IMG/VR virus record: IMGVR_UViG_3300028048_000042 | Direction: 5' to 3' (one strand) | DNA: 64,000 nt | From: a virus | Taxonomy: Duplodnaviria; Caudoviricetes | Shown: positions 12,996 to 55,805 of the stretch, one piece after another | How the letters are laid out: the number at the start of each line of letters is the position of its first letter | How positions within the stretch are numbered: the first letter of the stretch is position 1 | Translations under genes and position numbers: made by a program | Notes under the pieces: model-generated | What the model was told of the DNA's origin: nothing | Database searches by the model: none | Seen by the model: the letters and a program-made list of their open reading frames with translations, nothing else

Positions 12996-13024
12996 TTGAC
13001 AAATCTTTATATATGTGTAATAAT
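12996..13024 (+). promoter_or_regulatory. sigmaA-type promoter
   Basis: TTGACA-17-AATAAT with extended TG. Confidence 0.65.
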
Positions 13025-13075
13025 ATAATCAAACGAAATCAAGATAAAACTTATAAAAAAAGGAGATTGTATAAA

Positions 13076-13882
13076 ATGTTGACGAAGGTAGCAGAAAAGA
13101 GATTTGCAAACGGTGTTGTATATGCATTGAGAACGGAAGATGGGTATCTGATTGAAACCACTGATACTTTCCTTCCTTACTATACTAAGGATGCTATTGG
13201 GAGAAAGCAGAATTTCCTTAATAACAAGGATTTGGGTTCGCGTAAAGAGCGTTGGATGATTGGAGTTTCAACCATGAGTGGCTGTTGTGTTGGTTGCCAA
13301 TTCTGCGCCACTGGTAATATGAAGAAATTCCGCAATTTGACGGCTGATGAAATTGTAGAACAGGTAGAGTTCATTATCGGCACTCACAATACCCCTGAGA
13401 CTCGTCAGAATCCCTCAGAATCGCTTGAATTTAAGATTAACTATACTCGTATGGGTGAACCGTTCCTCAACATTCAGAACGTGCGAGAAGCGATTACACG
13501 GCTTGATAAAGAATTGTCTGATACCAAAATCCACCATTATATCTCTACGATTGGAATTAAAGGTAGTGATTTTTCTTGGATTAAAGACAATATCACGTTG
13601 CAGATTTCTTTGCATAGCCTTGATGATGAACGTAGAAACAATTTGATTCCTATTAAAGGGAAAATGACAATTGAAGAGCTTGGTCAGATTCGTACCAAAT
13701 CTAATTTGAAAACAACTATCAATATGACATTGGTAGATGAAAAAGATTTTGACATTGATAAAATGAAGAAGTATTTTGACCCCAAATATTTCTTTGTAAA
13801 ACTGTCACCTATCAACGAAAACAATATTTCAAAGAAAAATCATATGGGGAAAGGAATCATTGAAGGGGTGAATATTGTTTGA
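13076..13882 (+). CDS. RlmN/Cfr-like radical SAM enzyme, N-terminal (large) part lacking the C-terminal AACGQL segment
   Basis: VSTMSGCCVGCQFCATG, RNLTADEIVEQ, MGEP, IST.G and ISLH motifs; start at ATG 13076 after aaggag SD. Confidence 0.85.
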   Translation: MLTKVAEKRFANGVVYALRTEDGYLIETTDTFLPYYTKDAIGRKQNFLNNKDLGSRKERWMIGVSTMSGCCVGCQFCATGNMKKFRNLTADEIVEQVEFIIGTHNTPETRQNPSESLEFKINYTRMGEPFLNIQNVREAITRLDKELSDTKIHHYISTIGIKGSDFSWIKDNITLQISLHSLDDERRNNLIPIKGKMTIEELGQIRTKSNLKTTINMTLVDEKDFDIDKMKKYFDPKYFFVKLSPINENNISKKNHMGKGIIEGVNIV

Positions 13883-14746: not shown

Positions 14747-15613
14747 ATGATTAAATTGGCTAAGTATTATTGTTCATTGAATGATGAAGAGCCGAAACGA
14801 ATAAAAGAACCGCAGATAAATGTATATGTACGTTTGCAGAATGTTTGCAATGCAGATTGCGACTTCTGCGAATTCTGTGGTCAGGCGAAAAAATTTGATG
14901 AAGAAAAATTCAAAGCCCTTTTAATTAAACTACATACTACCATCAAAATTAACAAATTATCATTTACAGGTGGAGAACCGACATTAGATTTTCCCTTATT
15001 CAAAAGGATGCTAAATTTTGTTAATGAATTAGACAAAGATATATTTACAGTAGTAAATACGAATGGTCTTCATCTAAAAGAATTAGCAGAGCTAGATATA
15101 AATAGTGTAGCTTTGTCGAGACATCATTATAATGATGAATTAAATCAATCTGTATTCAAAACGAAAGTGCCAACGAGTGAAGATATACGTTTATATAACA
15201 AAAAGAATACCAATTTACATTTATCGTGCAATTTGGTAAAAGATTATATAGACAGTCAAGAAGAAGTGTTAAACTATCTTGATTGGTGTGATAGTGTAAA
15301 TGCAAGGGATATAGGATTTGTAGGGTTGATGAAAACCAACGATTTTTGCAAAGAGCACTATATAGACTACAGTGTAGTAACAAAAAACCATAAACGAATT
15401 TGGAATAGTAAAACGTATAGTCGTCACGAAGGGAAAAATTTAATTTGTCGTTGTGGCAATTACGTATTCATGGGAGAAAATGGATTAGTTAATTTTTATT
15501 GTCGGCATTATATGTGCAATAACAACAGTGAAAGCACATTGGTGTATGACATTGATGAATTCAAGAATGGGTTTACAGGAGAGAACGTAGATGGTTGGAT
15601 TGTAAGCAGGTGA
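14747..15613 (+). CDS. radical SAM protein
   Basis: CNADCDFC, TGGEP and NTNG motifs. Confidence 0.9.
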   Translation: MIKLAKYYCSLNDEEPKRIKEPQINVYVRLQNVCNADCDFCEFCGQAKKFDEEKFKALLIKLHTTIKINKLSFTGGEPTLDFPLFKRMLNFVNELDKDIFTVVNTNGLHLKELAELDINSVALSRHHYNDELNQSVFKTKVPTSEDIRLYNKKNTNLHLSCNLVKDYIDSQEEVLNYLDWCDSVNARDIGFVGLMKTNDFCKEHYIDYSVVTKNHKRIWNSKTYSRHEGKNLICRCGNYVFMGENGLVNFYCRHYMCNNNSESTLVYDIDEFKNGFTGENVDGWIVSR

Positions 15614-24682: not shown

Positions 24683-24866
24683 TAGATTTCAAAAAAAGAG
24701 GTATTTTTTACCTCTTTTTTTTGCTTAGAATCACAAACATTAAGTAATATTATACTTTTATTAGGTTATTTTTTTTGTAGAATATTCTGTGCAAATGATA
24801 GTTCTTGTCAAAGGTTGATAGGAACTTTTGTTTTTGTTTTTCAGAATAAACACAATTTAAAACGAG

Positions 24867-30022: not shown

Positions 30023-30292
30023 ATGAAAAGATTGGTTCGTTTGTCAGCATTAGATATGAAAAAATTAGAAGAAGATTATTTGAAGATGATTGAGAAGGAA
30101 AATCAATCATCTTCTCCTTCTAATAAACCAACATATAAATTAACTGACAAAGAAAAAATGAATGATGACGAAAAAACATTTTTCCCATCGACAGGGCTTT
30201 TAGTTGAATATGATGATAATCAAGTAGATACAAATCCTAGAGGTGGAATACCTGGGCCTTGGGCGGCTTCATTAAGATGGATTGGAAGATGA
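30023..30292 (+). CDS. hypothetical protein with MKRL leader
   Basis: MKRLVRLSA start, SD. Confidence 0.65.
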   Translation: MKRLVRLSALDMKKLEEDYLKMIEKENQSSSPSNKPTYKLTDKEKMNDDEKTFFPSTGLLVEYDDNQVDTNPRGGIPGPWAASLRWIGR

Positions 30293-30296
30293 TGAA

Positions 30297-31262
30297 ATGA
30301 GATTTATCAAATTCGATAAGAAAAATTATCGTATAAGATTTCATTCAAGGTGTAAGAATTACAAAATAGAATGGTATTTTGGTAATATATGTAATTCGCA
30401 TTGTTCGTATTGTTTTGATAAAGACAGTCGAAAAACGTGTTATCGAAATATGACGAAGGAAGAAACGGATAAAGTAGTTAAATTCATCAATGATTTACCT
30501 CCATTATATGAATTATTGTGTTTAGGTGGAGAACCATCTTGTTTTAAATATTTAGAATATGGGTTAGATAAGATAAAACATGGGTGTGCGATAACGATTT
30601 TAACAAATGGTAAAGATGAAGAATTTGTAAAAAGGATGTTAAAACGTGGAACAAAAAAGCAACCGATGCACGTTGATTTAACTGCACATTCTGAAGAATT
30701 TTTAAAAGACAAAAAAAACAATTTAGAACATTTGGGTAGATTAATCAATTACAAAAATAACAATCCATATAGTAGATTAGCATTTCGTATAATGTTAGAT
30801 GGAGAAAAAACAATGGAGTATAAAGAATTAGTAGAATTCTTATATAACAACATTGTTCGAAATCATAGTGGATTAGAATTACACGTATCATTTATTTATC
30901 GTGAAGGAACTCCGAAAGAATTTATCAATAATATTCTTACCACAACAAAGTTTGATGAAGAAATTGGTGAATTTTTAAAGAGTGAATTAATGGCGCAAAG
31001 GAGTTCGTCATTAAAGAACAATTGTCATTATGGCAAGAAGTGTCCTGTATTAGAACATTTTGCATATATAAGGTTGGATGGTAGATTGGACGCAAGACCT
31101 TCATGTACAGAGAATGACAGTGAATTAACACATAAGTCGATATTTGATGATGATTTTGATTTAGAAGAAGAAAAAGAAAACATCAAATGGATTTGTCATA
31201 AAAAACATGAGCAAAATTGGGGACTATGTGAGCACGTATATGGGCAACTGAGGGAAGGATAA
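30297..31262 (+). CDS. radical SAM protein (tandem paralog 1)
   Basis: CNSHCSYC, LGGEP and TNG motifs; C-terminal Cys cluster. Confidence 0.88.
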   Translation: MRFIKFDKKNYRIRFHSRCKNYKIEWYFGNICNSHCSYCFDKDSRKTCYRNMTKEETDKVVKFINDLPPLYELLCLGGEPSCFKYLEYGLDKIKHGCAITILTNGKDEEFVKRMLKRGTKKQPMHVDLTAHSEEFLKDKKNNLEHLGRLINYKNNNPYSRLAFRIMLDGEKTMEYKELVEFLYNNIVRNHSGLELHVSFIYREGTPKEFINNILTTTKFDEEIGEFLKSELMAQRSSSLKNNCHYGKKCPVLEHFAYIRLDGRLDARPSCTENDSELTHKSIFDDDFDLEEEKENIKWICHKKHEQNWGLCEHVYGQLREG

Positions 31263-31265
31263 AAT

Positions 31266-32213
31266 ATGTGGAAGAAATATACAAAAGATTTGCGTATAAA
31301 ATTCCATTCAAGAATGTCTTATTATCGCATTGAATGGTATTATGGCAATATTTGTAACCAAAGGTGTTCATATTGTTTAAACAATCATACGTATTCTGAT
31401 TATTATAAAAATGTAACGAAGGAACAAGTAGATAAAGTAGTTGATTTTATTAATAATTTTCCGAAACCGCTTTTTGATATACAATTTATTGGTGGAGAAC
31501 CATCTTGCTTTAAACATTTTTTCTATGCATTGGAAAGAATTAATCGCAGAGGAAGAATTAATGTCATGAGTAATGGTGCGGATGAAGAATTTATAGAAAA
31601 ATTACTTTCTATGGGTACAAGGAATAATCCTGTATTAATTTGCGTTTCGCCACATTATGAATATTATTTAAAAGACAAAGAAAAATTTTTAGAACATCTT
31701 GAACGAATAGCGAAGATGAATTTAAAATATGAATACGGCGACCTTGAATTCAATGTATTGTTAGACCAAGAAAAGACAAAAGAATACAAAGAATTAGTTG
31801 AATGGGTATATCATGTGGCACGAGGAAAATACAAAGTGTGTTTTGTTAGTTCTTATGTTCGCAGAACAAGGGATGCTAAAGAAGTAGTTAAGAATTATGC
31901 AATCACTTCAATTTTTGATAAAGAAACAAGGGATTACATTCGTGAAGACTTTGGTGGAGCAAGATTAGAGTATTTAAGACATAATAACCATTGTGGGGAA
32001 ATATGTCCTGTATTTGAAAATTATGTATTTATTAGAATGGATGGAAGATTGGAAGCTACAGGATGTGAGCAACCAATTATTTCAAATAAATCCATTTATG
32101 ATGATGACTTTGATTTAGAAGAAGAAAAACGTCAATTAACACAGGTTTGTAAATGTAAAAGGCAACCAAATAACGGAATGTGTGACCACGTACATGGATT
32201 ACCACCTGATTAA
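31266..32213 (+). CDS. radical SAM protein (tandem paralog 2)
   Basis: CNQRCSYC, IGGEP and SNG motifs; colinear with the upstream paralog. Confidence 0.88.
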   Translation: MWKKYTKDLRIKFHSRMSYYRIEWYYGNICNQRCSYCLNNHTYSDYYKNVTKEQVDKVVDFINNFPKPLFDIQFIGGEPSCFKHFFYALERINRRGRINVMSNGADEEFIEKLLSMGTRNNPVLICVSPHYEYYLKDKEKFLEHLERIAKMNLKYEYGDLEFNVLLDQEKTKEYKELVEWVYHVARGKYKVCFVSSYVRRTRDAKEVVKNYAITSIFDKETRDYIREDFGGARLEYLRHNNHCGEICPVFENYVFIRMDGRLEATGCEQPIISNKSIYDDDFDLEEEKRQLTQVCKCKRQPNNGMCDHVHGLPPD

Positions 32214-45167: not shown

Positions 45168-46247
45168 ATGATTAAATATTTTTCAAATAAGGTTGATTGG
45201 CTTAGTGTAAGACGTAATGTTATTAAATGGGTTGAAGAAAATCTTGATAGCAATGCTTTTTTACATGGCAAAGCGTCAAGAGAATTTGCAGATAGAATTA
45301 AAAACTTTATCGGTAGTAAATATTGTGTTTTGACGAAATCAGGCACTCAGGCTTTAGCTGTAGCATTAAAAAGTTGTGGCGTTGGACAAGGTGACTATGT
45401 TATTACAACTCCATTTACTTTCATTGCTACAATTAATGCAATTAAATTGGTTGGAGCAGAACCAATCTTTGTAGATATTAAAGAAGATACTTTTAATATT
45501 GATGAAAATAAGATTGAGGAAAAAATTACTGATAAAGTAAAGGCAATTATGCCTGTGGATATTTTTGGTAATCCTTGCAATTATGATGCAATTTTGGCTA
45601 TTGCAAAGAAGCATAATCTGAAAGTTATTGATGATATGTGTCAGGCAATGACAGCAGAATATAATGGTAAAAAGTTAGGTAGTTTTTGTGATGCTTCATG
45701 TGTATCATTCTATCCAACTAAACCTTTTGGTGGGTTTGGCGAAGGTGGAGCAATATTCACCAATGATGATGAAATCTATAAAATGGCAAATTCTTATTTA
45801 GACCACGGTTCAGATGGTAATGCTAATTGCGTAATTGATGGAACAAATGGCGCATTTGATATGATACATGGTGTTTTCTTAAATGAAAAAGCAAAAATGA
45901 TGTTACCACAAGTATTGAAAAAGAGAAATGAATTAGCCCAAATTTATCATCAAATGGAAGGTGTAACTTGGCAAAAACAAGAACCAAATGCTGTAAGTGC
46001 TTGGTGTAGAATGCAGGGTGCTTTCGATTGCGAAGAAAATTTTGAATTAGCAAAGACTATATTTGAATTTGATGATTGTTATTCAAGAGATATTTGTGAT
46101 AATACTTTATATGCTCAATATCGAGAAGAAAATCCTGTATCTGCAAAAATCGCACATACATATGTTAGTTTTCCTATGTATACCTATCTTGCTGTCAAAG
46201 ATTTAAAAGATGCAGTGGAAAAATTTAACTCTTTGAGAAAAAAATAA
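45168..46247 (+). CDS. DegT/DnrJ/EryC1/StrS family PLP-dependent sugar aminotransferase
   Basis: SGTQAL, TPFTFIAT, GAEPIFVD, DDMCQA and SFYPTKPFGGFGEGG (PLP lysine) motifs. Confidence 0.93.
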   Translation: MIKYFSNKVDWLSVRRNVIKWVEENLDSNAFLHGKASREFADRIKNFIGSKYCVLTKSGTQALAVALKSCGVGQGDYVITTPFTFIATINAIKLVGAEPIFVDIKEDTFNIDENKIEEKITDKVKAIMPVDIFGNPCNYDAILAIAKKHNLKVIDDMCQAMTAEYNGKKLGSFCDASCVSFYPTKPFGGFGEGGAIFTNDDEIYKMANSYLDHGSDGNANCVIDGTNGAFDMIHGVFLNEKAKMMLPQVLKKRNELAQIYHQMEGVTWQKQEPNAVSAWCRMQGAFDCEENFELAKTIFEFDDCYSRDICDNTLYAQYREENPVSAKIAHTYVSFPMYTYLAVKDLKDAVEKFNSLRKK

Positions 46248-47898: not shown

Positions 47899-47996
47899 TT
47901 GATTTCTATATAAAATAAAAAAAAGACTAGAAATGTTTCTAGTCTTTTTTTTTGTCGTTTCTATATATAATATGTGTAAAAAAAAGGAAGATAAAC

Positions 47997-49259
47997 ATGG
48001 GAAAAAGTATATGCGTTGTCGGTTGTGGATATGTTGGTTTGCAATTGGCATTAGCTTTTCAAAAGCACATTCAGGTATATTGTGTAGATATTAACGAAGC
48101 AAGGATTGAAGCTTTCAAAAAAGGCATTGATAATACAGGTACAGTAGCTTTTTGTAATGCAGAAGAAGAATTTAAAAATATTAAATTTGAAACGGATATT
48201 AAGGCTGTGCCAACAAATATTGATACATTTATTGTATGTGTGCCAACTCCTGTTGATGAAACACATACGCCAAATTTAACTGCTACAAAAAGTGCTTCAA
48301 GTAGTGTGGCGAATGTCTTAAAAAAAGGTGATTTGGTTGTATTTGAATCGACAGTAGCTCCATTTACAACTGAAAAGATTTGTGTTCCTATTTTGGAAAA
48401 AGAATCAGGATTAAAATGTGGTGATGATTTTTGTGTAGGGTATTCACCTGAACGTTTACAACCTGGCACAAAAGGTAAAGGAATTTTGGAGATTGTAAAA
48501 CTTGTATCAGGTTACGATAAAACATCATTAGAACGAGTGTATAAGTTGTATAATACTATTTTGCCTGATGATATGTTGTGTTGTTGCAATACAATGGCTG
48601 AAGCAGAATTGTCAAAAATAATGGAGAACGTTAATCGTGATGTAAATATTGCATTAATGAATTATTTTAAGTTGGTTTGCGATAGATACGGTATTGATTA
48701 TGAAAATGTATTTAATGCCGCCGCCACAAAATTCAATTTTAATCAAAATGTTACGTATGGTATGGTTGGTGGACATTGTATTGGTGTTGACCCATATTAT
48801 TTAATTGATTTTTGTCAGAAAGACAAAGACTTTTATGATGAACAAAAAGACATTTTGCTAACTGCAAGAAGAATTAATGAATATATGCCTTATTATTTAG
48901 CAAAGAAAGTTCACAAAGCACTTGGCGAAACAGGTGAAGGAAAAGTAACAATTGTTGGTTTTACATTTAAAGAGTATTGCAGTGATACACGCAATACTAA
49001 AGCATATGATTTATATAAACACTTGCTTGATTTCGGATATGATGTTGCTATTTATGACCCTAAAGCAGATGCAACCGAAGCAAAAATTTTGTATAATGTT
49101 GATATTTTGCAAGAAGAAATGCCGAATAACAATGATTGCATTGTATTTACTTTGAATGATATTGAATTAGTTGATTTTGATGTAGATAAAAAATTGGCTA
49201 ATGGTGGAGTAATTGTTGATTTTAAAAATGTTTTAACAAAGAAAAAAAGTATTAATTAA
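47997..49259 (+). CDS. UDP-N-acetylhexosamine 6-dehydrogenase (WbpO/WecC/TviB family)
   Basis: GCGYVG Rossmann motif, CVPTP, ESTV, YSPER, AELSK..EN and GGHCIGVDPYYL. Confidence 0.93.
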   Translation: MGKSICVVGCGYVGLQLALAFQKHIQVYCVDINEARIEAFKKGIDNTGTVAFCNAEEEFKNIKFETDIKAVPTNIDTFIVCVPTPVDETHTPNLTATKSASSSVANVLKKGDLVVFESTVAPFTTEKICVPILEKESGLKCGDDFCVGYSPERLQPGTKGKGILEIVKLVSGYDKTSLERVYKLYNTILPDDMLCCCNTMAEAELSKIMENVNRDVNIALMNYFKLVCDRYGIDYENVFNAAATKFNFNQNVTYGMVGGHCIGVDPYYLIDFCQKDKDFYDEQKDILLTARRINEYMPYYLAKKVHKALGETGEGKVTIVGFTFKEYCSDTRNTKAYDLYKHLLDFGYDVAIYDPKADATEAKILYNVDILQEEMPNNNDCIVFTLNDIELVDFDVDKKLANGGVIVDFKNVLTKKKSIN

Positions 49260-52569: not shown

Positions 52570-52648
52570 ACAAGGGAGCTAGGTACAAAAAGTGCCTAGC
52601 TTTGCTATAATATATAATAAAAGAAAATTTGAAATGAAGTGATATAAG

Positions 52649-53821
52649 ATGAAAAGACTTGCTAGTACAGAATTGACAGTTGTACACAGTCGTGAAGATA
52701 TTCCATCAACGGAAATGAAAAGTCTTTTTCTTGCAGGCCCTACTCCAAGAAAAAAGCATAATCTTGAATGGCGTTCGGAAGCAATTAAAATTCTTAAAGA
52801 ACTAGGCTATAATGGTATTGTATATACACCAACTGAACGTAAAGGTGAATTTGACCGTAATGTTCTGAAAGAGCAGTGTGCATGGGAATACAAGACAATG
52901 ATGGCTTGTGATGCTATTGTTTTTTGGATTCCTCGACAAAAACGACAAGATTTTGAAATGATTGCATTAACTACTAATGTGGAATTTGGTCGTTTCTTTG
53001 AGTCAAATAAAATGTTCTGTGGTGCTCCTAATGACGCAAAATCAATCGAATATTTGAAAATTATTTCTGAAAATAGATATGAATGGACAAATACTTTGCG
53101 AGATACACTTAAACGAGCTGTAGATTATCTTGGTGAAGGTGTATATCGTGAGGGAGCAGAGTGTTTAGTTCCTAAACATATTTTTGAATCTGCTCAATTT
53201 CAAAATTGGTATAAATCTCATAAGCAGAATGGAAATCAATTAACTGATTTTAAGACTTTGTTTGAATTCATTGCTCCTTATTCAAAGAAAATGTTTATGA
53301 CGATTTTTAAACCTGATGTGTTCATTGAAAAAGAAAATCGCACAAAAAATAATGAATTTGTAGTTGCAAGAACAGATGTATCATATATCTGTGCTTACCA
53401 TAAGACCAAAAAGGAAACTAAAATTCTTTTATGTGAAGAATTTAGAAGTCCTGTTGTAAATGATGATTCAATGGTTTATGAACTTGTGGGCGGTAGTAGT
53501 GATAATCCAAATGACGATGAATTGCAAGTTGCCGCAAATGAGTTTGAAGAAGAAACAGGCGTGAAATTAAAAAAGAGCAGATTCAAGAAGGTTGATATTA
53601 AACAGTCTGCAGCAACGCTTTGCTCTCATAGGATTACACTTTACTCTGTTGAATTAACGGATGAAGAAATTAAACATTTTGAGGAAGATAAAGATATTCA
53701 CGGAGTGACGGAAGCAACAGAACAGATTCATCTTCATGTCATGACTTTGGAAGATGCATTAAAGAAAGTAGATTGGACAAACGCAGGTATGATTTTTGCC
53801 GCAATGAAAGGAAAAGAATGA
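52649..53821 (+). CDS. nucleoside 2-deoxyribosyltransferase-like / Nudix hydrolase fusion
   Basis: LFLAGPTPR..WR, Q..WE, D.IVFWIPR, TT.VEFG (NDT-like); EEFRSPV..YELVGG...AANEFEEETG (Nudix box). Confidence 0.85.
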   Translation: MKRLASTELTVVHSREDIPSTEMKSLFLAGPTPRKKHNLEWRSEAIKILKELGYNGIVYTPTERKGEFDRNVLKEQCAWEYKTMMACDAIVFWIPRQKRQDFEMIALTTNVEFGRFFESNKMFCGAPNDAKSIEYLKIISENRYEWTNTLRDTLKRAVDYLGEGVYREGAECLVPKHIFESAQFQNWYKSHKQNGNQLTDFKTLFEFIAPYSKKMFMTIFKPDVFIEKENRTKNNEFVVARTDVSYICAYHKTKKETKILLCEEFRSPVVNDDSMVYELVGGSSDNPNDDELQVAANEFEEETGVKLKKSRFKKVDIKQSAATLCSHRITLYSVELTDEEIKHFEEDKDIHGVTEATEQIHLHVMTLEDALKKVDWTNAGMIFAAMKGKE

Positions 53822-54921
53822 GTAATTATTTAAGAAAAGACATTTCTACAATTTTTGTTATGTTGGGTCATGAATGTAATTTACAATGTAAATATTGTTT
53901 GCAACATGACGTAGTAAATATTGCTTTGGATAAGCAGGTTAATCCTGATATTTATAATTTTATTTGTGAAACAGCTCGTAATCAGTCAACGCCGTTAGGA
54001 ATTCAGTTCTATGGTGGTGAACCATTAGTATTTTGGAATAAAATTGTGGAAATTGTAACAGAATTGGAAAGTAGAAATACAGGTAATAATATTTATTTCT
54101 CTATGATTACAAACGGTAAGTTGTTTGATGAAGAAAAGGTAAATTTTGTTAATGAACACAATATTGGTGTTTGCATTAGTTGGGATGGTAGAAATTCTAA
54201 CATTACACGAGGATATAATGTGTTTGAAACAAATAAAGAAAACATTTTTAAGATTAAAAACTTTTCCATATCAGGTGTAATGTCTTCTTATAATTATATT
54301 GGTGATTATTTGGAAGATGCAATTAATTTGAATCTTGATTACGTTAAAAATTATAATGGGCATACCATTCATGTAAACGTAGATGATTTGCTTGATATTA
54401 ATCTTCCAAATCCTGATTTAAAAGACTTTGATTATAATAAAGCATATGAACAAATGGAAGCATTATGCGATGAATATTATAATTATGTAAAGAATGGCGA
54501 ACGGTTAGAAGTAATTAAGGTTGAATATTTTGAAAGAAAAATCAATCAAATTCGAGGTGCAATTACTAGCAAACATTATCAACCATTGAGAGATAGATGT
54601 GGTAATGGTTGTGAAGTTATCAATATGGATTTGAATGGCAATCTGTACAAATGTCATAATACAGATGCTAAAGTCGGTACAATTTATGACAATGGATTTG
54701 ATGTTTTAAAACGAGTTTTTGATTTGGATATGGTAAATCATACAGCAGAAAAGTGCAATGAATGTCCTGTACAAATTATGTGTATGAATGGTTGTCCATT
54801 AGTAAAAGAAGCACCAAGGGAAGAGTTCTACTGCGCCATGATTAATATTATGAATTATCCTATAATGAAATTGGTTACTAGGTTGGGTGACGGAGTTGAA
54901 CGGAAAGATAACGAAAACTAA
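53818..54921 (+). CDS. radical SAM/SPASM domain peptide maturase
   Basis: CNLQCKYC, FYGGEP, ITNG and ISWDG motifs; SPASM CG.G...G.LY.CH...C..C....C..GC....C. Confidence 0.9.
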   Translation: MSNYLRKDISTIFVMLGHECNLQCKYCLQHDVVNIALDKQVNPDIYNFICETARNQSTPLGIQFYGGEPLVFWNKIVEIVTELESRNTGNNIYFSMITNGKLFDEEKVNFVNEHNIGVCISWDGRNSNITRGYNVFETNKENIFKIKNFSISGVMSSYNYIGDYLEDAINLNLDYVKNYNGHTIHVNVDDLLDINLPNPDLKDFDYNKAYEQMEALCDEYYNYVKNGERLEVIKVEYFERKINQIRGAITSKHYQPLRDRCGNGCEVINMDLNGNLYKCHNTDAKVGTIYDNGFDVLKRVFDLDMVNHTAEKCNECPVQIMCMNGCPLVKEAPREEFYCAMINIMNYPIMKLVTRLGDGVERKDNEN

Positions 54922-55420
54922 ATTCTCAGCATTTGACATTGAAAATATAACAAAAAAACAATTGTTGAATGAATTGGATAGTGCTTTAACAAAACTAGAA
55001 GGTTATGCAACAAAAGTCAACAATTGTGATTGTGCACAAATTTATTCTTGTCAAGAAATGAGATGCCAAATTAAAGGCAAGGGTACAGGAAATTGTAATT
55101 GGCATCCATGTCAATCAGCAAAAAATTGTATTGATATTGTTGGATGTCAAAAAATGAGTTGTCAGTATTTTACTTGTCAAAAAATAATTTGTCAGCAAGG
55201 TACAAGTTGTCAAACATGTCAGGCTTGTGAAAAATGCCAAGTGTGTGAAACTTGTGAAAGTCAATGCTTATGCCAAACATGTCAAGTATGTCAAAAACAA
55301 ACCTATGATGTTTATTCTTGTCAGCAGGTTAAGTGTCAGTCGTGTCAGACTTGCCAAGTGTTGTTATGTGAGAATGTTTCTTGCCAAGCTAGAAAATCTG
55401 ATGGTAGAGACTTAGAGTAA
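54887..55420 (+). CDS. Cys-rich CQ-repeat protein, putative radical-SAM substrate
   Basis: 27 Cys after a Cys-free 46-aa N-terminus, 22 of them followed by Q or E; start uncertain. Confidence 0.75.
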   Translation: MTELNGKITKTKFSAFDIENITKKQLLNELDSALTKLEGYATKVNNCDCAQIYSCQEMRCQIKGKGTGNCNWHPCQSAKNCIDIVGCQKMSCQYFTCQKIICQQGTSCQTCQACEKCQVCETCESQCLCQTCQVCQKQTYDVYSCQQVKCQSCQTCQVLLCENVSCQARKSDGRDLE

Positions 55421-55487
55421 CAACGTCAAGATAAAAATCCTCATTTTTCTTATGACATTTTTGTAGTAGAATAAATGAGGTGATATT

Positions 55488-55805
55488 ATGGAAAAGTTTA
55501 AGAATGGTTTTTTTCATAATATAATGTCTGTAGACGAAACAAGAGTGTCAGTGCTAATGATAAGTCTTATTGGCGCATTGGTATTTGGCGGTTATATGTA
55601 CCTTTTAACAGGTGCTCTTAGTGTAGTTTGGGCAGATATTATTACTACTTTGATTTTGGCAGTTGCAGGTATTAATGCAGTAAACTCCATTACAACTAGC
55701 GGTATTTTTAGAAAAAATACTAATGAAATGGTAGAAATTGGGACAAGAGTTCCACAAGAAATTAAAAATACCACATCTGCTCAGAGTCAGCAATTAAAAA
55801 AATAA
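55488..55805 (+). CDS. membrane protein (2 TM), holin-like
   Basis: two TM helices, basic tail, gaggtg SD. Confidence 0.55.
   Translation: MEKFKNGFFHNIMSVDETRVSVLMISLIGALVFGGYMYLLTGALSVVWADIITTLILAVAGINAVNSITTSGIFRKNTNEMVEIGTRVPQEIKNTTSAQSQQLKK

Follow-up and report, generated by a model that had tools for sequence, protein, structure and literature searches.

Why would a phage carry an enzyme of the kind that matures peptides, overlapping a gene whose product contains 27 cysteines? We analysed a 64,000-nucleotide stretch of viral DNA (Duplodnaviria; Caudoviricetes; IMG/VR record IMGVR_UViG_3300028048_000042), hereafter the window, in which a gene for a radical S-adenosylmethionine (SAM) enzyme with a SPASM domain is followed by a gene for a protein composed largely of Cys-Gln (CQ) units, the CQ protein. 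The phage is a large one: genes for terminase, portal and major head protein lie upstream of the pair, as does a fibre-like gene, and contigs carrying syntenic relatives of the window measure 333–404 kb. At about even odds, the whole arrangement is best read as a dedicated enzyme that staples the CQ protein with thioethers, the product being a structural part of the phage particle. That the enzyme covalently modifies the CQ protein is highly probable. Given modification, thioethers are the likely links, and a place for the product in the virion, as judged from the gene context of relatives, is likely to the same degree.

Is the CQ frame a genuine gene? Its product lacks Cys in residues 1–46 and then has all 27, of which 18 precede Gln and four precede Glu; an earlier note on this DNA had these counts, the coordinates and the overlap of the two genes right. 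The core has 22 C[QE] dipeptides, where 100,000 shuffles averaged 6.0 and did not exceed 14, and its Cys fraction of about 0.15 compares with at most 0.044 in the other long plus-strand frames of the window. Nine homologs (53–94% identity) keep nearly all Cys, and against the homolog in L001 the core shows a dN of 0.23 and a dS of 1.27, with 27 of 27 Cys kept, six of them through synonymous changes. Because the homologs retain nearly all Cys and dN is far below dS, we take the frame to be a real, selected gene. The protein has no Pfam, NCBIfam, PHROG or Atlas match, to metallothionein or any other family; in NCBIfam and Pfam, 0 families reached E≤0.1 for the window protein and none E≤0.01 for five relatives. 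Small phages encode two such proteins, A and B, with distinct conserved N-termini. The window protein is of type A, so that it represents one of two paralogous chains, a point the earlier note had missed together with the adjacent (i+1) relation of Cys and Gln, which is unlike that of SCIFF/PapB.

What, then, is the rule by which the cysteines are placed? Of the runs at 3-residue spacing that had been described earlier, the one at residues 108–123 has five such gaps; most other gaps are of 5 or 6 residues and one of the 26 is of 4. We counted the residues that follow Cys in 49 non-redundant cores, a set chosen for CQ content, which inflates the level and leaves the contrast between positions i+1 and i+4 unaffected. 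Gln or Glu stands at i+1 in 289/345 cases at a Cys gap of 3, 65/86 at gap 4, 130/153 at gap 5 and 24/39 at gap 6, and at i+4 just where a period of 3 makes it inevitable (5/153 at gap 5). At a gap of 2 the next residue is Asp or Asn in 66 of 99 cases. This constancy across gaps, together with the Asp/Asn at gap 2, indicates that the unit is Cys-(Glx/Asx). In the window protein Gln/Glu occupies i+1 after 22 of the 27 Cys and i+4 after 10 of 27, with Asp/Glu at i+4 in three of 27. A PapB-like i+4 rule was considered and rejected, as it fails outside period-3 runs. PapB links Cys to Asp at i+4, and adjacent Cys-Asp inefficiently (PMC9413430). QhpD links Cys to Asp and Glu, and an amide acceptor is also known, NxxcA using Asn. 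The Gln directly after Cys may be an acceptor or a recognition residue.

The type-A N-terminal segment reads NGxI..T.F and continues into an amphipathic helix at residues 22–42 that ends in VxNC. Of the helical N-terminus proposed earlier, this stretch is predicted to be helical and the rest of the 46 residues is not. Modelled as a monomer, the CQ protein gives a poor structure (mean predicted local distance difference test score, pLDDT, 51, with residues 22–42 helical at about 70), which was for that reason kept out of the fold search. We predict that the segment serves as an enzyme-binding leader and/or a coiled-coil anchor. When the window and the loci were searched with profiles of the A and B leaders, no further protein matched, which argues against the leader being a general fibre motif in this setting. 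Binding of the segment by the enzyme gains weak support from a complex model that pairs the enzyme with CQ residues 1–62 and scored 0.53 against 0.00 for the best control, with a partner pLDDT of 50–51 and at least 40% of contacts common to the runs. In calibration 58 of 80 solved pairs and 2 of 110 mismatched pairs reached the mark; those that did so with a score of 0.60 or less comprised just 7 of the solved pairs but both mismatches. SuiB offers a precedent for a helical leader bound outside a recognition element (RRE) of the type found in systems for peptides that ribosomes make and that are modified after translation (RiPPs).

The type-A proteins of jumbo relatives accept Cys-free insertions of 50–100 residues at varying points in the first half of the core (L015:7085-7978, L016:7070-7975, P0130, P0131), as a scaffold with displayed variable loops might do.

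To which known enzymes is the predicted maturase related? The Radical_SAM profile PF04055 scores 34 bits against a cut-off of 29.5 (the GGEP motif and a partial TIM barrel are present), the SPASM profile likewise exceeds its cut-off, and the structure model is confident (pLDDT 94). Eight Cys lie in the C-terminal part, at 261, 265, 279, 313, 316, 322, 326 and 339; seven of them, all but the variable Cys265, are invariant with His280 in 119 homologs. The best NCBIfam match is PapB (NF047865; 123 bits, cut-off 340), and CteB/SCIFF (TIGR03974; 86 bits, cut-off 425) and the anaerobic sulfatase-maturating enzyme anSME (TIGR03942; 67 bits, cut-off 349) are likewise below their thresholds. Among solved proteins CteB is closest in sequence (E=6e-34); the two share the Cys-His pair and three Cys positions of auxiliary cluster I (AuxI). 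The radical SAM domain begins at enzyme residue 9, which aligns with CteB residue 96, and the model has no N-terminal RRE, although the neighbouring genes were not searched by profile-profile comparison for a separate one. By these profiles the enzyme is a radical SAM/SPASM protein of the thioether-maturase neighbourhood, as had been proposed, closest to CteB/PapB and in no named maturase family. CteB has an open auxiliary-cluster site (PMC8326336). Seven invariant SPASM Cys are the pattern of enzymes with a free site for the substrate thiol on the first auxiliary cluster (PMC8326336; CrpC, PMC13692751), and the same may apply here, where just three invariant residues, Cys 261, 279 and 326, are candidate ligands of AuxI. 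The variable Cys265 makes this less than certain; in 4 of 12 close relatives it is Tyr or Phe.

Could the enzyme modify the CQ protein by some other chemistry? Hydrogen abstraction at the Cys itself, as by anSME (to thioaldehyde or formylglycine), a heterocycle, a sactionine link to the backbone, and Ser/Thr or inter-chain links would each be conceivable, with Gln as a recognition residue and the product still a part of the virion; we consider this unlikely. The top Foldseek match of the model is anSME (E=2e-15, TM 0.65), with CteB ranking next, and anSME, which likewise lacks an RRE, oxidises Cys and makes no thioether. An i+1 ring would be small and is poorly formed by PapB. CteB uses a Thr two residues on (i+2), where Ser/Thr are the most frequent residues in CQ cores (332/851), while CrpA has a C-X-X-Q/D motif, yet not all of its mapped links used that motif. 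In sequence, however, the enzyme family is closer to CteB (121 bits) than to anSME (75 bits), its seven invariant SPASM Cys fit an open site, and Gln/Glu at i+1 (68% of non-Cys residues) is far more constant than any residue at i+2.

Is the CQ protein the substrate? An alignment search yielded 240 enzyme loci, where a single-sequence locus search of viral contigs had given none. CQ genes accompany 10/10 enzymes scoring at least 400 bits and 64/75 at 200–400, which makes 74 of the 85 loci with a close enzyme; they are found with 3/13 at 140–200 bits, 1/11 at 100–140 and 3/119 of the distant enzymes, below 100. A Cys-density screen made without the CQ criterion recovered the same open reading frames (ORFs). 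We also scanned in the reverse direction with a DNA pattern. Among the matches listed (80 loci), 15 encode an A or B leader and 14 of these 15 hold the enzyme, the fifteenth being a 1.5-kb fragment from a contig on which the enzyme is present; the other 65, again among the matches listed, are off-frame low-complexity or leaderless repeats. The leader-bearing contigs were all already known from the locus set. The earlier note had named conservation of the pair as a check, and enzyme and CQ gene indeed prove tightly linked both ways. The closer enzymes are encoded by large phages and by prophages of Acidaminococcus, Megasphaera, Succiniclasticum, Selenomonadaceae and Phascolarctobacterium, and the family is common among Negativicutes prophages; the small culturable carriers are prophages of Megasphaera sueciensis and Acidaminococcus fermentans. 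No CQ protein is found among the neighbours of the distant enzymes in phages RP12, RSP15 and Achromobacter phage 2-1, but two upstream proteins bear short CxC tracts.

Several more distant loci show variations. Distant SPASM enzymes (22–26% identity) in L085, L091, L093 and L216 adjoin long period-4 C[QE] repeat proteins of 300–906 aa with up to 107 Cys, some of them C-terminal tracts of larger proteins. On a 251-kb contig (L012:9287-11996) one enzyme is flanked by two A/B pairs, and a ThiF gene and a further three radical SAM genes come after them. In a Sporomusaceae chromosome (L011:8865-11074) the enzyme (40% identity) lies beside a 161-aa protein whose end consists of Cys-Asp repeats and an Asp-Gly tail; no tail genes are obvious in the vicinity. 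The enzyme clade extends to Elusimicrobiota genomes (L110, L112, L113), and the protein upstream in L110 has a terminal Cys-Asx tract.

Where would the modified protein go? In the Megasphaera prophage the genes run tape measure, Dit, two genes, a small gene, tail fibre, enzyme, A, B, a Hint-like gene, a 296-aa gene and a second radical SAM gene. Upstream genes match fibre families in L034, L067, L104 and L109, and the upstream fibre genes share a C-terminal domain that matched the self-cleaving chaperone Peptidase_G2 in the two cases tested. Among 96 loci, 67 combine CQ genes with a Peptidase_G2-like fibre end, 11 have CQ genes without that end, nine lack CQ genes and have a Cys-Asx tract ending the upstream protein, nine have neither and 0 have both, a separation that carries less weight for being partly circular, as the chaperone profile was built from CQ loci and the tract test was defined after looking. 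The collagen tail fibre of L109 ends NCNCDCDCDCDCGDDS, the same terminal motif as many CQ proteins, and in L108, L109 and L111 the rest of the cassette is unchanged. The tract state changes six times on a quick tree, on which the changes were counted, with at least three forced by well-supported branches. A self-cleaving fibre that loses its C-terminal chaperone would keep no terminal tract, which would explain the separate CQ chains. In a 281-kb jumbo relative about 210 kb separate the type-B gene from the enzyme; type B stands immediately behind a conserved gene with a weak match to fibres (PHROG 6722, E=1e-4), and the order of fibre-like gene and type B is kept in L256 and L257; the jumbo clade therefore probably keeps both chains, with the module split. 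The virion appendage that the earlier note had offered as one option thus finds real support in the tail-fibre context of the relatives.

The Hint-like gene (L107:7813-8208) follows the CQ genes in about 60 loci and lacks its first catalytic Cys; it is not in the window. In L013:11119-11970 the C-terminus of CQ-A carries a fused Hint domain whose Cys-Phe start is intact.

Could the modified protein instead act in the infected cell or be released, as a metal or sulfur store or as a host-modulating or antimicrobial RiPP-like product, its tail position reflecting late expression? The layout of leader plus core would suit such a role, as would the place of the pair in the window clade, outside the tail genes and beside a holin-like gene. 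CrpA has been suggested to bind metals (PMC13692751), and the Hint-like protein of most small prophages, fused to CQ-A in L013, could process the chain. We judge this distinctly improbable. CQ genes and fibre-end Cys tracts are mutually exclusive and the same terminal motif stands on a collagen fibre; type B follows a fibre-like gene in jumbo relatives; and the free Hint-like ORF lacks its first catalytic Cys. The antimicrobial or host-modulating product that the earlier note had also entertained finds no support: no peptidase, exporter or immunity gene is seen beside the pair in the window or in annotated relatives, where several neighbours are unannotated, and the enzyme has no RRE such as SCIFF and sactipeptide maturases possess and scores below their family cut-offs.

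CxxC spacing is typical of metal sites, and the enzyme persists in 18 loci without CQ genes (nine of them also without a visible Cys tract), so that the CQ protein might be an unmodified metal- or disulfide-bonded Cys ladder, metallothionein-like or a zinc-bound fibre tip, with the enzyme acting elsewhere in the tail module; this we hold to be very improbable in view of the two-way linkage and gene overlap, the enzyme staying with CQ-A in jumbo relatives though both left the tail module, the lack of a metallothionein or other family match, and a strict i+1 residue that metal binding does not need.

Returning to a thioether-stapled virion protein, how might it be made? The enzyme, by sequence and model a radical SAM protein with a seven-Cys SPASM domain and no RRE, would recognise the conserved N-terminal helix of the CQ protein, as suggested by the linkage and, weakly, by the complex model. 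By analogy with CteB, PapB and CrpC, an auxiliary cluster with a free site would hold the thiol of a substrate Cys, and the adenosyl radical would take a hydrogen from a nearby residue, giving a thioether with a change of −2 Da; this would recur along the chain. As partner or recognition residue we propose the Gln/Glu right after each Cys, or Asn/Asp in the CxC tracts of relatives. From their gene context, the stapled A chain and the B chain encoded elsewhere would form a rigid, oxygen-independent fibre tip or whisker; they may replace the Cys tract that the fibre end bears in other phages possessing this enzyme, and would be used chiefly by phages whose fibre terminates in a self-cleaving chaperone. 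A more specific version, which we regard as doubtful, is that the RRE-less enzyme turns up to 22 Cys-Gln/Glu units into undescribed small thioether rings or ladders, forming a two-chain fibre tip interchangeable with a fibre-end Cys tract, in phages of anaerobic gut and rumen bacteria.

Several findings weigh against a stapled virion protein, in addition to the Foldseek ranking given above. The auxiliary site could be closed by Cys265, or by an extra Cys that 51 of 119 homologs have just before position 261, and no Cys-Gln thioether was found in the literature searched. The locus set is redundant and holds about 29 distinct CQ enzymes. No cultured phage has a close enzyme (the best shows 25% identity over full length), and none carries a type-B homolog. 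The enzyme occurs with neither CQ gene nor tract in nine loci, among them the 500-kb phage L010, which keeps it in the syntenic place, and many cassettes hold further radical SAM genes that could do the chemistry. Just one tract-bearing protein is a proven fibre. In the window clade the pair lies between the Nudix gene and the holin-like and dUTPase genes, outside the tail genes; in the window it comes 6 kb after the major head gene, no chaperone-ended fibre is present, and the motif that precedes the portal and capsid genes (TATWTT-N5-TAGA, see below) is missing directly upstream of the pair.

Is the system a member of a known family? Its closest counterpart in proposed function is CrpC/CrpA of Methanococcus voltae, in which a SPASM enzyme has been proven to put thioethers on a 29-kDa Cys-repeat protein (PMC13692751). 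Like CrpC (TIGR04463), the phage enzyme is a seven-Cys SPASM protein adjoining Cys-repeat proteins, with a protein-sized substrate; CrpA also has a Cys-free N-terminal part of about 47 residues, and there too two paralogous partners exist. Unlike the phage enzyme, CrpC has an RRE; TIGR04463 is outside the 25 best matches of the window enzyme and scores 33 bits with the Megasphaera ortholog against a cut-off of 525. The archaeal pair is chromosomal with a 17-aa repeat unit, whereas the phage pairs belong to tail modules and have CQ units of 3–6 aa. PapB/freyrasin (NF047865) and CteB/SCIFF (TIGR03974; PDB 5WGG, 5WHY) share the positions of three AuxI and four AuxII Cys and the Cys-His pair, and within period-3 runs the CxxCQ pattern mimics PapA's nested CX3D motifs. 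They differ in that their family cut-offs are missed, the RRE is absent, no SCIFF model matches, the CQ protein follows no CX3D/E rule, and the substrate is 177 aa with 27 Cys rather than a 6-Cys peptide. anSME (TIGR03942; PDB 4K36-4K39) resembles the phage enzyme as an RRE-less radical SAM/SPASM protein of the same length that acts on a protein Cys; identity is 20%, however, no sulfatase is found among the neighbours, and the eighth SPASM Cys of anSME has no invariant counterpart. The CXXX-repeat and Cys-every-fifth systems (TIGR04114/04115/04117, NF038107 CefB) are bioinformatic pairs of a SPASM enzyme with a Cys-repeat target. No CQ protein matches their models, TIGR04115 is outside the 25 best enzyme matches, the Megasphaera ortholog scores 44 bits against the CefB cut-off of 600, and the CQ period is mixed 3/5, not 4. 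The phage system would thus work most like CrpC/CrpA and like PapB/CteB, yet it is a member of none of these families: it fails on cut-offs, RRE and motif.

The proposed chemistry is of a known kind; its setting is unreported in the literature searched. We found no description there of phage radical SAM enzymes with Cys-rich fibre partners, subscription journals being largely outside the coverage. Phage radical SAM genes had been noted earlier without a substrate (PMC3322345), and the enzyme–CQ family now offers a candidate for one, together with a sequence rule and small test systems that can be cultured. If the proposal is true, peptide natural-product chemistry builds virus particles, perhaps replacing disulfides in oxygen-free habitats. 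PapB-type peptide stapling tools need a carboxylate or a mimic of one; if it acts as proposed, the phage enzyme, introducing many cross-links at Cys-Gln sites without an RRE, would be a possible addition to them.

Table 1. Features of the enzyme–CQ pair and its immediate neighbours; positions refer to the window.
Feature	Position	Strand	Remarks
Radical SAM/SPASM enzyme, predicted Cys-protein maturase	53818..54921	+	367 aa, without N-terminal RRE; 158 homologs at E≤1e-30
CxxxCxxC, motif of the SAM-binding 4Fe-4S cluster (Cys20/24/27)	53875..53898	+	Present in 118–119 of 119 homologs
SPASM domain	54598..54834	+	TIGR04085, 34 bits (cut-off 27); 7 invariant Cys and His280
Type-A CQ-repeat protein, predicted substrate	54887..55420	+	177 aa, 27 Cys; GTG start, alternative start TTG 54896
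Cys-free N-terminal segment of CQ protein	54887..55024	+	Conserved across all type-A proteins
Cys-rich core of CQ protein	55025..55417	+	Units of 3, 5 or 6 residues, nearly all starting Cys-Gln or Cys-Glu
Deoxyribosyltransferase-like/Nudix fusion (context only, outside the system)	52649..53821	+	Translationally coupled to the enzyme; missing here in several relatives
Small membrane protein, weak holin match (context only)	55488..55805	+	Pfam PF05105, E=0.004, below cut-off

The enzyme and CQ ORFs overlap by 35 nt, and the ATG of the enzyme overlaps the stop of the upstream Nudix-type gene (ATGA). The CQ protein possibly starts three codons later than listed, at the alternative TTG, where several homologs begin. 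The holin-like gene is syntenic in all jumbo relatives, including one without a CQ gene.

How is the region expressed? Read by eye, a hairpin of 10 bp followed by TATAAT stands at 52577-52611, before the Nudix-enzyme-CQ unit, and L015 and L016 have a similar hairpin and TATAAT immediately before the enzyme. Exact copies of TATWTT-N5-TAGA occur at window positions 24767, 37882, 46288, 59047 and 62008, just upstream of genes, the portal gene and the capsid operon among them. The holin-like gene is preceded by a copy with one mismatch, at 55456, and L015 and L016 have an exact TAT-N8-TAGR in the same place. We consider the motif a candidate late promoter; a promoter scan gave no useful excess over chance, and with one mismatch the count of this motif is just slightly above it.

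Four further CxxxCxxC ORFs lie in the window (13013-13882, 14747-15613, 30282-31262 and 31266-32213), of which the last two match radical SAM PHROGs. The four may encode second enzymes that act on the CQ chains or on other substrates. A DegT-type aminotransferase gene (45168-46247) and a nucleotide-sugar dehydrogenase gene (47952-49259) flank the major head gene and are conserved in relatives, which suggests that the phage may synthesize a glycan.

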